Source of the DNA: Deltaproteobacteria bacterium TL4
Lineage (GTDB): Bacteria > SAR324 > NAC60-12
Assembly (NCBI GenBank): GCA_051382335.1
Contig: JBBCAX010000129.1
Span: forward strand, 1-52,168
DNA length: 52,168 nt
Direction of reading: 5' to 3'
Shown here: positions 45,024-52,041 of the stretch, in pieces
How the letters are laid out: each line of letters opens with the position of its first letter
How positions within the stretch are numbered: the first letter of the stretch is position 1
Program-made: the position numbers and the translations under genes
The notes under the pieces: model-generated
What the model was told of the DNA's origin: nothing
The model's database searches: none
What the model saw: only the letters and a program-made list of their open reading frames with translations

Positions 45024-48000
45024 ATGAAATTGAAGATTTCTTTCATTATGCTGAGTTTTTTGATAGTCACCGTTTTATTCGGATGGGGATGTGAGCCCAA
45101 TACCGATAGCACATCTAACAACAGTACCCCCGCTGTGGCACCGGCATCGGAACAACTGGCTTCTTTGGCCATTTCCATTCAAATTCCCAATTCCGCTTTG
45201 AGTCGAAGCAAAGGCGTGGCTGCGGATGTTTCCCAAATAACCATCATGTCACGCGAGGCTCAATGAGTTACATCACGGCTCAAGCCTTGACGAAAACAAA
45301 CGAAGCCTGGTCGGGAACGTTGAATAATCTTCCGGTGGGAAATTCGCTCAATTTTGTGGGACACGCCACTAACGCTTCCAATGTGGAAATATTTACGGGT
45401 ATGGTGACCTATACGCTCACCGGCACGAATGACACACTCAGTCTTTCCTTGAATCCCGTGGATGATGGAGTGGTATTACTCCTTCCCAAGATCACGATCA
45501 CGGCTCTGAATGCTGTGAACACCGAAGCCTCCAGCACGATTCAAGTTGCGGTGGAAGGCAATAGCGGAGAAACGCTGGCTTATTTGATTACCCCTGCCGT
45601 GGGCGGAGGTACGTTCAATCCCTCTTCTGGGAATCTGACATTGAGTGGCACGAGCGGAAGTTTTACTTCGCTCTATACCGCTCCTTCCACAACCGGCACC
45701 TTCACCCACACCCTCAACGTAACCAATGCTCAGGGCAACAGCACCGAAGTGGAGTTTGGAATCGCTTTGAATGATCCCCGTTCCACTGCCGAAGTGACGA
45801 TCAATTTTGCTCCGGTGTTGACGGCGCTGAAAGCTAAACGTTCCGGATCGAACATTCTCTGGACTGCGGTTGTGAACGATGATGGAGATTCCAGTGCGTT
45901 ACGCTATCTTTGGAGTTTTGATGGAGGTACCCTCATTGATACAACCGCCAATCCCAGCACTCTGACCAACTATACCACCTCCACCACCGGAACCATGGTG
46001 CTCAAAATCACCGACCAAAACGGCTCCGGCGCTTCCAGCACAGTCTCTTATTGGCTCCCAGCTAACCAGTTTGCCATTTCAACCAACGCTGAAATAAACA
46101 TTGGCAACGGAAGTGATGGTTCCCTAATTGTAAATGGAGACGTGAACCTAAATACCAACGGCCATGCTCCCAAATTTTCTGTGTCTAGTATTAGCACTAA
46201 TAGCGTAATACTTTCAGAGTCAATTGCTGGGATTGCTTCAGAAGATGAAATTTTATTAATTAATTTACAGGGAAGCGCTACCGCTTATAATAATGTAGGA
46301 AATTATGAATTTTTACAGGTACAGTCCATAACAGGAAACAGTGTCACATTCACCACTAATGTGTCCAAAATTTATGGAGCTACTACCAATAATTCGGTCT
46401 TAACAGATCAAAAGATCATGCTCCAACGAGTGCCACATTATACTGACTTGACGGTGTTGTCTGGGTATTCTCTGAGTGTGTCAGCTTGGGATGGCAACAG
46501 TGGCGGTGTATTAGCATTAAGAGTTTCAGGAACGCTACAGATCCAATCAGGGGGCAAAATCGATGTCAACGGATTAGGATATCGTGGAGGTGGAGGTATA
46601 GAATGGGGATCCTATTCAGACAGTGCTTGGCAAGGAGAGAGCTACGCAGGTCTTGGTGTACGCGATTATCATAACAATTTCGGTGGCGGTGGCGGTGGTC
46701 ATGGCGGAAATGGGAATTGGATTGGAGCCGGAGGCAGTTATGGTAGCAAAGGGATAGAAGATGTTAATTATGATGCGAGGGCAGGTGCAGTATATGGAGA
46801 TTCCAGTTTGAGTCAATTATTCTTAGGATCTGGTGCAGGAGGACGGCAATCTAACTGGGATTGGTGTCAATCTTCGGGTGGAAACGGAGGTGGAATTGCA
46901 ATGGTTTTTTCCAATACAATCAGCGTAAATGGAACCATTCAATCTAATGGAACCATTGCTTTTGGACGTTGTGGAACGCCCAATGACACATCCTCAGCAA
47001 GTGGCTCCGGAGGCAGTATATTGATTCAGGCTGGCAATTTTACTACTGATAAATTAGGTGTGACAGCTACCGGTTTCGCAGGACCTTTTACAACGGCTGG
47101 ATGGTGGACAGGAGGCGCTGGCAGGATAAGTATATATTCTGGTTTATATACTCCACTTTCAGGATCTAATAGCTATTATTTTGTAAAAACTACGGATGAT
47201 GGCTTCAAAGCGGTCACCATTCTCTCTTATGAAAGCGGAGTTCAATATCAGGTCAGTACCAAAGGTTCAGGGTTGGTAACTTCGGGTTCGTTGAATGAGG
47301 GGCAACATTTTGAGATAAAGGACTATAACCTGCCTTTTAACGAATTGATTAAGATTGAAGTAAAAGGAAATGGGATCGTTTATCATACGGACTCATTATA
47401 CACCTATGCTGATGATGGTGAGATCGTTTTGGCAAAAGGGAAAAATAGTTTTGTTGATACAGAGTTTTACATCCGAAGTCCTATTACAGGTTACTCCCCA
47501 CGGCTAGTCGTTGTAGGGATCGAAAACGGGACTACTCTAAATATTGACGATATTTCTGACAATGATGACGATGTGAATGGAATCTCCCTGAACAAAGGAG
47601 GAACCTATGTGAAGGTCTTGAATGGGGTCTCTACTCTGCATTTAACCTCAACGGGGAAAATATATGCCTATTGGGGAATCATAGGTAACTATAGCATGGA
47701 AGTGATTCCTACAGTAACAGGTAACTTAGTAGGGAACGAATTCTATGCGGCCACTCCAAGTTTTATCGGTGTTATGCCTTTGGAAAATGGAAATATGACC
47801 ATCACCAGAATCAGAGATGGTGCTGTAGTTTATAATGGAGCTATTAACAAAGGCTCTGCTATTTACACTAACAATAATGCGGGGTTTAACAGCAATGGTT
47901 GGGCAGGAGTCGAAGTTTTGCATGTAACTTCAGACGTACCTGTTTACAGTTGGATATCCAATTATAATGATAATAACAAAATGTATGGATCCATGCCCAT

Positions 48001-48289
48001 ACCTCCGGTAAATGATTCCTATAAGGAATTTTACGCATACGCTCAAGGTCACTCTAGTTGGCGCTATTTTCTCAACATTCATGCCTACGACAATAACACC
48101 ACTGTTGTTATCACAGATCTTACAGATGGAAGTGCTTCAGCTACAACCACTCTAAATGCAGGAGAATTCTTCAAGTCCCCCGGATTCAACGGACATAATC
48201 TGCACATTGAAACGAGTAAAAGAGCAACAGTCGTCTTGTTTAGTGAGACAGCAATGAGTGCGGGGGCAATGTTGTCAGCAGGGCCATAA
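45024..48289 (+). pseudogene. Large surface lipoprotein (Ig-like, Gly-rich and beta-rich C-terminal repeats) split by an apparent 1-bp frameshift near 45247
   Basis: Lipoprotein signal (GWGC) in ORF 45024-45266. ORF 45263-48289 lacks a signal peptide. Adding one base gives continuous QITIDVTRGSMSYITAQ. Confidence 0.75.
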
Positions 48290-48338
48290 GTGGATCAAAA
48301 CCGAAAAGTCTACTCCGCGCGGTCATAAATTTGGATTT

Positions 48339-48398
48339 TGTCATTCCGAACGCATGTGAGGAATCTTTAAGATTTCTCGCCTTCGGCTCGAAATGACA
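48339..48398. repeat. TGTCATT...AATGACA REP-like palindrome
   Basis: Terminal inverted TGTCATT.CG / CGAAATGACA with internal hairpins. Confidence 0.75.
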
Positions 48399-48614
48399 CA
48401 TCACCTAAAACTGGCCTTGCTGGAGCAACGCACGATTGAAGTGGCCTATCAAGAAGCTATGGAAGAAAAGCAAGCCCTTTTGAAACAATTTGCGGAAATG
48501 CAACGCCGAGAGGAAGAAGCACAACGTCAAAAAGAGGAAGCGCTCCGCCAAAAGGAGGAAGCTTTAAATGAACTTCAACGACTGAAACAACAACTCGCCA
48601 GAGCACGTCCCTGA
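48393..48614 (+). pseudogene. Coiled-coil C-terminal gene remnant (QKEEA repeats), possibly from a PD-(D/E)XK/Rpn-like gene
   Basis: Heptad EEAQRQK/EEALRQK repeats; the ATG is supplied by the REP. Confidence 0.4.
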
Positions 48615-48659
48615 GAAATAACTTTATCGCACAGTATCAATTTTTTATGAGAAAGCCGT

Positions 48660-48710
48660 GCATGCAGGGTGGTGTGGGAGGGGGAAGCGAAAAGCTTCCC
48701 TCTATCCGAT
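48660..48710 (+). mobile_element. 3' end of a group IIC intron (3' half of domain V, domain VI)
   Basis: GCATGCAGGGTGGTGTGGGAGGGGGAAGCGAAAAGCTTCCCTCTATCCGAT: DVI hairpin with bulged A, ending in AT. Confidence 0.85.
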
Positions 48711-48735
48711 TCTGCTTGCCGCAGAGTAATTTCAT

Positions 48736-48909
48736 TCAGCGACTTGCTACCGTTCCGAGGGATACAGGTTGTCTGGAAATAACTCTGGATTGATATTGGA
48801 TCTCTAACTTCTTGGCACGTTCCAAAAGTTTAGTCATATCAAACCCGCATTCCTCTTCAATTTTATGACGTACTTGACGCACTTCATTCACTATCGGATC
48901 TTCCCACAT
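48736..48909 (-). CDS. 57-aa partner (putative antitoxin) of the PIN protein, not in the ORF track
   Basis: MWEDPIVNEVRQVRHKIEEECGFDMTKLLERAKKLEIQYQSRVISRQPVSLGTVASR; TAATG overlap with the PIN gene stop. Confidence 0.8.
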   Translation of the reverse strand: MWEDPIVNEVRQVRHKIEEECGFDMTKLLERAKKLEIQYQSRVISRQPVSLGTVASR

Positions 48910-49382
48910 TATTCCTCCATAAGTTCTTCTGGTGTACAGATAACAGGGGTACGGATCCCCAATTCGTTATTGATGCTTTCGATTAAAAGGCGAACACGAC
49001 CACTGGCAATATGTTTACAATTCCAACTCACCAGGTAGTCAATTCCTTGTCCTGTGGCGATGGCCAAGTGCAAAGCATCCAATTCCGATTTCTGCGGGAT
49101 ATTGAGTGCTTGATTATAACGTTCAGCTAACTCTACGACTTGTGTAGAGGATTGCAGGATAGAAAATCCCTGGACAACTTGGATGCGTTTATTTGCGGCT
49201 ACTCTATCCCCTTGAAAAATTTCATCCAGGACAAAGGTGGATATAAATGCCTCGAATTTGGGCAATTCATTTTCCCACCAATCTTGGGTAATTTGCTGAT
49301 GTCCTGCCACAATTAGGTCACGGCTTGGCCTCGACGTTAAATAACTGATAACTGTTGTTTCAATATAAACCGTTGGTTTCAT
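48909..49382 (-). CDS. PIN-domain (VapC-like) toxin
   Basis: VYIETTVISYL, E in helix, DALHLAIA, YLVSWNCKH and ICTPEEL. GAGG RBS precedes the ATG at 49382. Confidence 0.92.
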   Translation of the reverse strand: MKPTVYIETTVISYLTSRPSRDLIVAGHQQITQDWWENELPKFEAFISTFVLDEIFQGDRVAANKRIQVVQGFSILQSSTQVVELAERYNQALNIPQKSELDALHLAIATGQGIDYLVSWNCKHIASGRVRLLIESINNELGIRTPVICTPEELMEE

Positions 49383-49460
49383 GCCTCTTTCGATTTTGAA
49401 GTTCAAATTTGCTCAACTAAACCATGCTTGTACGGGTTGTCCATTATCTATATTCATATC

Positions 49461-49565
49461 TATAGACTTTCAGATAAGTCTTTCCTGGGAGCGCGGGTAT
49501 CCTGCCCGCAAAAGCAGGCGGGACGCCTGCACTCCCAGCCCAAAATACTTTTCTGAAACACTATA
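49461..49565 (+). mobile_element. TATA-bounded MITE (copy 2), inside the cassette 5' region
   Basis: Homologous to 285-389 and the same 105-bp length. Confidence 0.78.
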
Positions 49566-49605
49566 TCAATACCTTATCAACTTCACAACTAATAATTTTG
49601 AGCAA

Positions 49606-49731
49606 GCAGAACGCTTGAGCTAAGCGGCGGCAACCAAGGGACACGGAACGTCACCGAAGCCGAACCCTGAAAAATGGACTGTGAAATTTGTGAAGGGTAC
49701 GCCTTGGTTGCCGTCAGCTTCAGCGCCTTGT
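49606..49731 (-). other. Integron attC site (top strand = minus), interrupted at its R'' box by a group IIC intron
   Basis: Minus strand reads ACAAGGCGCTGAAGCTGACGGCAACC...GGTTGCCGCCGCTTAGCTCAAGCG|TTCTGC, giving R''/L''/L'/R' boxes and a long imperfect palindrome. Confidence 0.88.
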
Positions 49732-50337
49732 GTACGCCCAGCATGGGCGTGAATTAATGGGGTGAAAGTTCCTTGGAGAGTAGCCAATGGCTACGTTCTC
49801 ATGGAAGTAATAAGGTGGCACTGCCGAGAAATTAGGCAGCTAACGGAGAAAACAAACCACTTCCTAAAAGAAAATATGTCATAAACTCCTAGCCGATGGC
49901 AAGGGCAAACTTGTGAGGGAATGTCTGAAGGCTTGTCCTGAACGCAGTCGAAGGGAAGCCTGGGCAAAACGACGAGTCGACGTACAGAAACCTCAGGTTA
50001 GGCCAACTTCCCCAAGGTGAGTGAGCACAAGATCATGAAACCTTGTGGCTAACGGGATCGGGTCAATGAGGCGGTTGTGTCGTGAAAGTTCACGTTCTTA
50101 TCTGGGAAGATCTGTCCCCCTGTGGGATTCTCCGAAAGGCTTGGCCTCAAGAAAGAGGAGAGAGGACTGAGTTTAAGTCTTTCTCTTTTCTTGCGGTAGA
50201 GGGCTTCTGAGGCAGGAGAAACCGGTCATGTCAGTAACGGTTTGATCTGGGAACAGAAGTCAGATGATCAACAGTTCCAAGGGCTACTGGCGTTTATCCA
50301 AAATGCTGGCGACTCAATCGGGCATGACCAATCGCTG
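49732..50337 (+). mobile_element. 5' part of a group IIC-attC intron (DI-DIII) joined by internal deletion to the C-terminal tip of the RT/maturase
   Basis: Starts after TTGT with GTACGCCCAGCATGGGCG...GGGTGAAAGT. Contains GCAAGGG, CTGAAG/GAAGCC, GAAAGTTCACGTTCTTATCTGGGAAGATCTG and CAGAAGTCAG. 50270-50335 encodes NSSKGYWRLSKMLATQSGMTNR. Confidence 0.88.
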
Positions 50338-50398
50338 AATACTTTTCTGAAACACTATAGAAGCCACCTTGGGAACAAGAATTAAATAACTTCCCCTT

Positions 50399-50484
50399 TT
50401 AACGCAGAGGGCGCAGAGGACACAGAGAAACGCAGAGGAAATTATATAATTTTATTTCTCTGCGTTCTTTGCGTCTCTGCGTTA
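50399..50484. repeat. Palindromic CGCAGAG-type repeat
   Basis: TTAACGCAGAG...CTCTGCGTTAA inverted repeat. Confidence 0.75.
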
Positions 50485-50524
50485 AAAGGGGCTGAGCTGA
50501 AGACCGCCTCAGTTTGAAAATTAA

Positions 50525-50626
50525 TATACTTCTCCAGAAAAGTTTTGTCCTGGGAGTGTGGCATCTTGCCCGCAAAAGCAGGAAGGACGCCTGTGCTCCC
50601 AGCAGAAATTTATCTAGACATCTATA
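50525..50626 (+). mobile_element. TATA-bounded MITE (copy 3); a lone right end also at ~50339-50359
   Basis: Homologous to 285-389 and 49461-49565. Confidence 0.72.
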
Positions 50627-50776
50627 GAAAATTAATGTGTAAGGAATCATTGCCAAAATTATTTATTAACGGTATATGCATCTATAGTAGACTTTTTGTG
50701 TCTGCGTAGAAAAAACGCCTTGTCATGCAACGGCTTTAAGCAAAGGCCTTACCTTAAATTTTCTGAGAACAATATC

Positions 50777-52041
50777 ATGAATGCAGAATCAAAATCTCAA
50801 ATATTAAAATTTTTACAGGAGACCAAATACTTCAGTGATCTGGAGCCAGAAACCTTGATCCAATTTGCGGATTTTGCGGAATACAAGAGATTTGAGGACG
50901 GAGATACCGTTCTACGACAAGGCCAACGAAGTGATTGCATTTATTTCATCATGTCAGGATATGTCTCAGTGCATGTGAATGGAGAACATATTTGTGATTT
51001 AAAAAAGCAAGGTGATATTTTTGGAGAAATGAGCGTCATCACAGGAAATGCGGTCAGTGCAACCATCCACGCTTATGATCATTTGGAAGTACTCACCCTT
51101 TCTTCACAATTTCTTGATGATCTCAATCACCATCAATTCCGTGAACTTCAATATGTTTTTTACCGGTGGTTCGCTTTGATTCTCTCTGAAAAACTGTTTT
51201 TAACTTCATTGAAACCAAAGGTTTACGCAGAACGAAATCAAGAATTGGAGCAGGAAAAAACCAAGCTTTTGGTTAGTTTGAAAAAGATTGAAGAGTTATG
51301 GGGAGAGCATCAGTTTCTAATGGAAAAAATTGAAAAAATTACCGAAAACGACTTAAAAGATCTAGCCCAGAGCCTGAGAAGGGTATCGGAGAACATCACT
51401 TCACAGGAAAAAAAGTCGTTAATTCAAGGCATGAAAACCGTCGATAAGGTGCAAGAGGCATGGAACTCCGCAACCAAGTTGTCCAAATTCAGAAAGGAAG
51501 TTCAAAGGAAAAAAGTTCTGTTGGCAGAGAACAATAAGAAGCAACAAATTATTACGAAAATGGCCTTAGGCGGGACAGGCATTGAGTTGGATATCGTAGA
51601 AAATTTAGAAGCGGGCTACAAGATATTAGCAGAAAAGCATTATGATATTTTATGCTCCAATATTGAATTGATTGAACTGACGGCGTTTGCGCATCAACAA
51701 TATCCTAAAACGCAATCTGTGTTTATGACTTCTGATGATGTCCAAAGTTATTTACCCGTTTTAAAACGCTATCCTCATATTTCAAATATCATCTCAAGAC
51801 ATGAAGAAGATCGGACTTTTACGGTAAAAAATATTTTAATCACTATCGGGAAATTGATCAATCAAGAGCTATTTGGCTTGGAAAAATACCTCAGTTGGGG
51901 GATTGAAATCCAAGAAAAAGTCGTCACCGACAGTACCCAAAGAAGTGAGCTGATTGATCAAATGATGGACTATTTTGCGCAAATGGGGGTAAGGCGTCCC
52001 ATTCTCAATAAAAGCGTCATGATTGCGGAAGAGTTGTTAAT
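50777..52041 (+). pseudogene. cNMP-binding domain, coiled coil and receiver-like domain protein; not in the ORF track (frame open to window end); probably interrupted near 52042
   Basis: Manual translation MNAESKSQILKFLQETKYFSDL...LRQGQRSDCIYFIMSG...GDIFGEMS...KVLLAENN...AEELL. Confidence 0.75.

Follow-up and report, generated by a model that had tools for sequence, protein, structure and literature searches.

Organization of the locus and its cassette

The locus occupies positions 48,660–50,337 of contig C129, the whole of which (52,168 nt, called here the window) was analyzed, and belongs to the TL4 assembly (G000; 6.6 Mb in 445 contigs). Along the plus strand it carries, in this order, the 3′ tail of a group II intron (48661–48710), a two-gene cassette with a PIN gene, an attC site and the 5′ part of an intron (49732–50337). 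This is the layout proposed in the initial annotation (3′ tail, small ORF and PIN gene on the minus strand, attC, TTGT, intron 5′ end), and each element was found where it had been placed. The 3′ tail comprises the 3′ strand of domain V and a domain VI with a bulged A, predicted to fold at about 48676–48707, and terminates in CCGAT at 48710; domain V lacks its 5′ strand. The stretch 48647–48660 was considered as the start of domain V and rejected, because it belongs to an IS terminal repeat and shows no domain V fold. On the other side of the cassette, TTGT (49728–49731) is directly followed by the first base of the intron at 49732, and domains I–III extend on the plus strand to 50262 (the boundaries of domains I–IV are those that we presume for this class). 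A search with Rfam profiles placed a match to RF02001 at 49907–50096 (91 bits against a gathering score of 32), and the core of group II domain I is present. Near 49930–49952 this domain contains an insertion of 23 nt; an insertion at the same spot is seen in an intron of a different lineage on C114 (near 4340), and it is apparently a piece of a host palindromic repeat. Domain III is joined, through an internal deletion in which roughly 1.2–1.4 kb of the RT gene has gone, to a remnant of the RT/maturase C-terminal region (about 24 codons; 50263–50337, plus strand). The reconstructed intron measures about 741 nt, against 1957–2124 nt in three full-length TL4 introns.

Insertion at TTGT/T on the bottom strand of attC, in antisense orientation relative to the cassette genes, has been reported for IIC-attC introns (PMC3001079; PMC7923331). 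Site, strand, attC fold and the RF02001 match agree in assigning the intron to this class, as the initial annotation had done, and like introns of the S.ma.I2 type in arrays and CALINs it lies at TTGT/T of the bottom strand and antisense to the ORFs. It differs from them in that the RT gene is missing, domain V is broken, two pieces surround one cassette with one attC body, and the breaks coincide with an ISAs1 end on one side and a host repeat on the other. The profile for domains V–VI (RF00029) has no match in the window and matches at 51 places genome-wide, including none at the locus, whereas the intact relatives of this intron in genome G009 do match it. The catalytic strand of domain V being absent, the pieces are incapable of splicing in cis, and the missing RF00029 match together with a gap of 85 nt between the pieces identifies the locus intron, as judged from its sequence, as a relic and not a working member of the IIC-attC type.

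The cassette is composed of two minus-strand ORFs. The larger (48909–49406) codes for a PIN-like protein of 165 aa, a putative VapC-type toxin, with a weak match to PF01850 (E 0.0015; 19.6 bits, under the cut-off of 23.6) and no sequence match in PDB. The smaller (48736–48909) codes for 57 aa, has no Pfam or NCBIfam match, and is a putative antitoxin by virtue of its conserved pairing: a homologue lies just downstream of the PIN relative in 9/18 loci at E ≤ 0.005, and in a tenth at 0.07. The cassette is probably a PIN toxin-antitoxin pair, an assignment drawn from sequence comparisons, and as an addiction module this pair may have favored its own retention. Both toxin-antitoxin cassettes in arrays and a truncated IIC-attC intron (UHB.F1) have been reported (PMC7923331). 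A promoter scan of the locus gave three sites, where 2.5 are expected by chance. Two lone relics on other long TL4 contigs carry genes of a similar sort, namely a TA-like cassette (Phd/YefM and PIN, over the Pfam cut-off) at C43:27900–30200 (L072) and a possible TA pair (0 Pfam matches) at C51:14200–15300 (L073). Upstream of the PIN gene, and within the cassette, a whole host repeat of about 103 bp has been inserted (49461–49566, plus strand).

Both ends of the cassette are exact. When the exons are rejoined, they give the reverse complement of 49602–49612 at 11/11 bases, as originally claimed; this segment (minus strand) is the R′ core site and tail with which the cassette starts, and its counterpart is the R″ box remnant at 48711–48719 (minus strand), split by the intron at TTGT/T. 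Following the geometry outlined in PMC7923331, in array order the remainder of the attC split at 48711 would have lain leftward, and it is now gone; no stub of it survives at the locus. The attC body that is present (49613–49731, minus strand) is of a host-type family, and array order assigns it to the preceding cassette. Its bottom strand (49600–49733) folds at −30.2 kcal/mol (z −3.5), a stability equaled by 0/200 shuffles, and the body matches 12 other TL4 sites at 80–89% (the best on C161, 89%) and one G009 site at 82%. It is the single attC-like site on the contig, as determined by similarity to 32 intron-invaded sites, and so does not form the cluster by which a CALIN is defined. Comparisons of the attC family and of the R′ and R″ tails offered no means of tying this attC to the PIN cassette. 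In the 2/2 other cases in which a site of this attC family comes after the same R′ tail (C196 and L019), it is part of the neighboring cassette, but 1/7 uninvaded sites of the family has the R″ tail type of the PIN cassette. In the control pair C196/C362 the cassettes are just 73% alike, and the 86% identity of their "own" attC sites is the family background. A hairpin scan for attC downstream of PIN relatives found none at 18 loci and candidates upstream in seven, with a sensitivity checked solely on the site of the locus itself.

Both breakpoints lie at other repeated elements

The left end of the intron piece abuts the terminal inverted repeat of an ISAs1-family IS (48641–48660), whose last base is 48660, flush with the intron. 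Its 20 bp are identical to most other such ends in TL4, and the identity extends to 22 bp with an end on C198. The genome contains 46 ISAs1 ends including this one (22 of type A, 20 of type B and four others); for 14/22 type A ends, target duplications of 10–11 bp identify a type B partner, and on C56 the ORF that extends into the type B end matches NF033564, the ISAs1-family transposase (E 1e-44). Two of the 46 ends lie on an intron 3′ tail, one at the locus and the other on C114. Among the TL4 ends listed, no second end with a partner target duplication was seen for the locus. Outward from the terminal repeat, 38 nt (48603–48640) are possibly the interior of a related IS end; they show no significant similarity to six known end interiors (25–283 of 300 shuffles score equally), and were not found in 44 other genomes of the family. 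They are preceded by a small coiled-coil-like ORF of 73 aa whose end is cut (48393–48614, plus strand), the similarity of which to a paralogue on C392 ends at 48602, the position of the paralogue's stop codon.

On the right, the intron is fused at 50338 to the last 22 bp (50338–50359, plus strand) of the same type of repeat that is found whole inside the cassette, about 80 bp of the repeat being missing. This 103-bp element has imperfect terminal repeats and an internal hairpin, and we take it to be MITE- or REP-like; its end motif has 41 matches in TL4, about 38 of them with the repeat body upstream. At C311:136 the 3′ end of a group II intron of another type is apparently joined inside a copy of the same repeat. 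The left breakpoint is thus an ISAs1 end and the right one a host repeat, and since both flanking elements are truncated, a deletion must have occurred on each side. The central proposal of the initial annotation, in which the two pieces are one circularly permuted intron from a reintegrated circle, is not supported; each of the breaks falls at the end of a different mobile or repeat element.

Intron lineage and cassette arrays in TL4

Relatives of the locus intron were found in G009, a genome of the same family and another genus: two ORF-less introns, intact and 771 and 777 nt long, are similar to both pieces. The genome comparisons covered sets of 41 and 45 genomes, with TL4 as the sole representative of its genus. 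The left piece matches them at 94–96% and the right piece at 82–92% (82–84% in the ribozyme part, and 92% over 65 nt in the RT tail, with the intron on G009 C38), which bears out the suggestion that both pieces come from one parent lineage. The rest of the TL4 assembly yielded no further copy of this lineage: the dominant TL4 lineage matches the ribozyme part of the right piece at 71% and the next 13 best TL4 matches reach 71–79%. The search for a full-length intron of the lineage therefore failed in TL4 and succeeded in G009, with ORF-less copies. ORF-less introns are rare in bacteria and usually occur alongside related introns with an IEP, according to passages in PMC4424553 (further literature for comparison: PMC3053210; PMC8876359). 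TL4 itself contains several intron lineages, in which full-length copies coexist with ORF-less derivatives (639, 707, and 927 nt; C152, C362, and C43). More distantly, a 100-nt segment of domain I of the locus matches plasmid-borne sequences at 74–76%, and the RT of the full-length C6 intron, a paralogue in TL4, matches plasmid ltrA proteins at 66%; one of these ltrA relatives is found in a class 1 integron, in antisense orientation between aadA1 and qacEdelta1.

The pieces had been described as collinear and non-overlapping, the right one ending in the last RT codons and the left one starting within domain V. Both properties hold, but the pieces do not abut: the intact intron on G009 C38 has a further 85 nt between the corresponding positions, comprising the RT tail and domain V's 5′ strand. 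The missing segment, searched for with the G009 sequence as query, has no match in the TL4 assembly, and metagenome scans for the left junction and for domains V–VI of the lineage gave no exact match. With uniform breakpoints and 50 nt remaining on the left, two independent truncations would leave non-overlapping pieces with a probability of 0.93, and a gap of 85 nt or less with a probability of about 0.115; a circle trimmed on the right gives approximately the same figure for the gap. The match of 11 bp is likewise a property of cassettes and not evidence of a circle, since cassettes in arrays also show such matches (C362 11/11, C321 10/11; the other 11 units, several of them multi-cassette, have best values of 7–9/11). 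Non-overlap and the 11-bp match, which had been offered as signs of a circle, consequently do not discriminate between the models.

The locus had also been called integrase-less, which is true of its contig and not of the genome. TIGR02249 has 14 matches in TL4, none of them on C129, and the two that pass the cut-off are full intI genes on C186 and C413. The recommended search for other attC sites found at least 48 attC-like sites genome-wide, of which 33 carry an intron 5′ end. Of 37 strict matches to the 5′ end, those on C10 and C25, being devoid of attC, were dropped by eye. Using a looser 5′ motif (53 matches, false ones included) and a 3′ pattern that missed the end of the locus itself, 17 adjacencies were recorded, four of which are direct tandem joins and 13 of which are units with the order intron 3′ end, 0.8–5.5 kb, attC, intron 5′ end. 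Invasion of attC sites by introns is hence the normal architecture in TL4. The same lineage lies on both sides in 13/13 of these other units, which gives weak support given that one lineage dominates the genome. The left junctions of six further intron 3′ fragments lie inside contigs, and an attC stub is visible at the one on C43. The four direct joins of a 3′ to a 5′ end are tandem stacks (C152:165, C177:102, C217:475, and C400:1514), two of them offset by one base, and among 35 5′ junctions some deviate from TTGT (TTGG 4, CTTG 3, GATT 2, CGAT 2, TTTG 1). These shifted junctions suggest repeated homing at displaced positions of one attC.

A near twin of the locus lies at C114:1–4554, within a demonstrably linear array. 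There, an ISAs1 end directly abuts the 3′ tail of an intron. Two cassettes follow: between them lies an attC stub to which a 3′ fragment of an intron is fused, and after the second come an attC and a 5′ fragment of an intron, which is joined to the 103-bp repeat type. The C114 intron pieces (intron positions 1785–1985 and 1–268) are also collinear and non-overlapping. As a two-cassette decayed array, C114:1–6500 (L057) includes a Na+/H+ exchanger gene and a gene with DUF3892/Tlde1 domains. Another example is C287, where a further intron 5′ fragment ends adjoining a variant of the 103-bp repeat. Finally, in G009 the lineage of the locus itself occupies two successive attC sites (L019, positions 4394 and 6509).

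Probable relic of a linear array and competing explanations

The locus is best explained, with a probability of roughly three in four, as the dead remains of a linear cassette array, with one copy of a single IIC-attC lineage at each of two neighboring attC sites. This reading, two invaded attC sites later truncated, had been put forward as the alternative to the permuted intron. In a plausible order of events, the intron would have homed into both attC sites at TTGT/T and split their R″ boxes; from the attC structure described in PMC7923331, IntI should therefore no longer excise the cassette. The right copy would then have lost most of its RT gene, or would have come as a short non-autonomous derivative, and an ISAs1-family end would have been joined into domain V of the left copy. 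One deletion would have taken nearly the whole IS along with the left intron's 5′ part and its attC, and a second would have fused the right copy to the tail of the host repeat. This explanation is favored by the 13 other units, the successive sites in G009, the twin on C114, the junction on C287, the deletions on both sides, and the high chance probability of non-overlap. It is weakened by the restriction of the lineage to this locus within TL4, the low probability of so small a gap, the loss of any left attC stub, and the presence of a single attC-like site on the contig. Since the lineage was found nowhere else in TL4, the array needs two copies of a rare intron, where one suffices for a circle. 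An older wave of the lineage, or an array fragment imported from a G009-like donor, would also account for this rarity. Most likely, then, the locus is an ordinary leftover of an intron-studded array and not a new route of gene movement, and as such it matters little beyond showing an array laden with introns that decays under attack by IS and repeats.

A broader proposal, which we regard as doubtful, is that introns replace IntI as the route of excision where near-identical IIC-attC introns block most attC sites. Recombination between the flanking copies would free a circle of cassette and intron, which would have been stranded here in the chromosome, either through capture by ISAs1 transposing into domain V or through recombination with a lone intron. 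If this were true, cassettes could be scattered independently of integrase, and the lone attC and intron relics on other long TL4 contigs could be explained in the same manner.

The first of these two ways, taken as a separate explanation of the locus, is unlikely. It provides the permuted single intron of the initial annotation with a mechanism, and supposes that a circle of cassette and intron was opened in domain V by ISAs1 transposition and integrated, and that a later deletion on the right took the 85 nt together with the second IS copy. A one-intron circle fits a lineage that was found at no other place in the assembly, with two collinear pieces separated by a small gap, and the ISAs1 end flush with the left break would have provided the means of opening it. 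Because of the right-hand deletion, the size of the gap is equally likely in the circle and in the array. Against the circle, the right break belongs to a different element and no partner end with a target duplication is among the ISAs1 ends listed. Moreover, it requires both a circle and a cointegration event, for which no precedent was found, whereas TL4 offers parallels for every step of the linear model; a literature search conducted largely outside subscription journals found nothing on IIC-attC cassette circles, permuted attC introns, or integrase-independent movement. If the circle were nevertheless real, the locus would be a natural example of cassette movement without an integrase.

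Alternatively, and with quite a low probability, introns of the same lineage could have recombined homologously to free the circle. Its re-entry at a solitary intron of the lineage would have yielded two whole copies that were trimmed later. This route is also IntI-independent and involves no break within the intron. It would explain why a single cassette lies between two copies of a rare lineage, and substrates for it abound in TL4, where units are bracketed by near-identical pieces (94–100% like one reference intron) and the invaded attC sites are numerous. Recombination at group II introns has been reported for relaxase genes (PMC7947834), and recombination was proposed for cassette formation by Leon and Roy in 2009, as related in PMC3053210 and PMC7923331. 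The locus resembles the latter model, as related there, in that intron copies beside a gene and an attC could serve as recombination substrates. That model, however, builds new cassettes, whereas in the PIN cassette the R′ and R″ ends match already, so that this cassette predates the intron. Nothing in the sequence demands such a relocation, and at the locus its outcome is indistinguishable from the relic of an array.

A chimera at one junction, produced in assembly or binning, is very unlikely. The assembly is rich in repeats and fragmented into 445 contigs, and both junctions touch repeats; however, 94/890 contig ends share exactly 127 bases with another end and none shares 128, a sign that the last word length used was 127. 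Within 48300–50800, exact repeats reach at most 74 bp, well under this word length, and those at the junctions are of 22 and 27 bp.

The locus also invites comparison with the CP (circularly permuted) group II ribozymes of Roth et al. (2021; PMC8637638), which it resembles in that domain VI, with the 3′ splice site, lies upstream of domains I–III and their 5′ splice site. The CP RNAs, in the description given there, have an intact domain V, a linker of 15–86 nt, and P1/P2 stems and pseudoknots of their own, and they are active as well as conserved; the arrangement at the locus is a one-off, and by its cut domain V and linker length it is not a member of that class. That a working permuted ribozyme back-splices the antisense cassette into an RNA circle is implausible in the extreme, given that its inward-facing splice sites, which recall those of the CP RNAs, flank a linker of 1021 nt, that the catalytic 5′ strand of domain V and the whole of domain IV are gone, and that both of its ends are accidental joins.

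With a majority of its attC-like sites invaded, its ORF-less derivatives and its four tandem stacks, TL4 is a good place for testing whether IIC-attC introns freeze cassettes or reshuffle them. The intergenic region around the locus is a cluster of repeats, with host palindromic repeats at 48339–48400, 50367–50491, and 50523–50615; matches to microRNA families at 50393–50491 were rejected, as their scores are under the gathering values and they fall on a host palindrome. Further upstream, at 45024–48289 and downstream of rpoC, an ORF of 80 aa overlaps one of 1008 aa that is glycine-rich and resembles a surface protein with PKD domains; the two are possibly one gene split at 45263.
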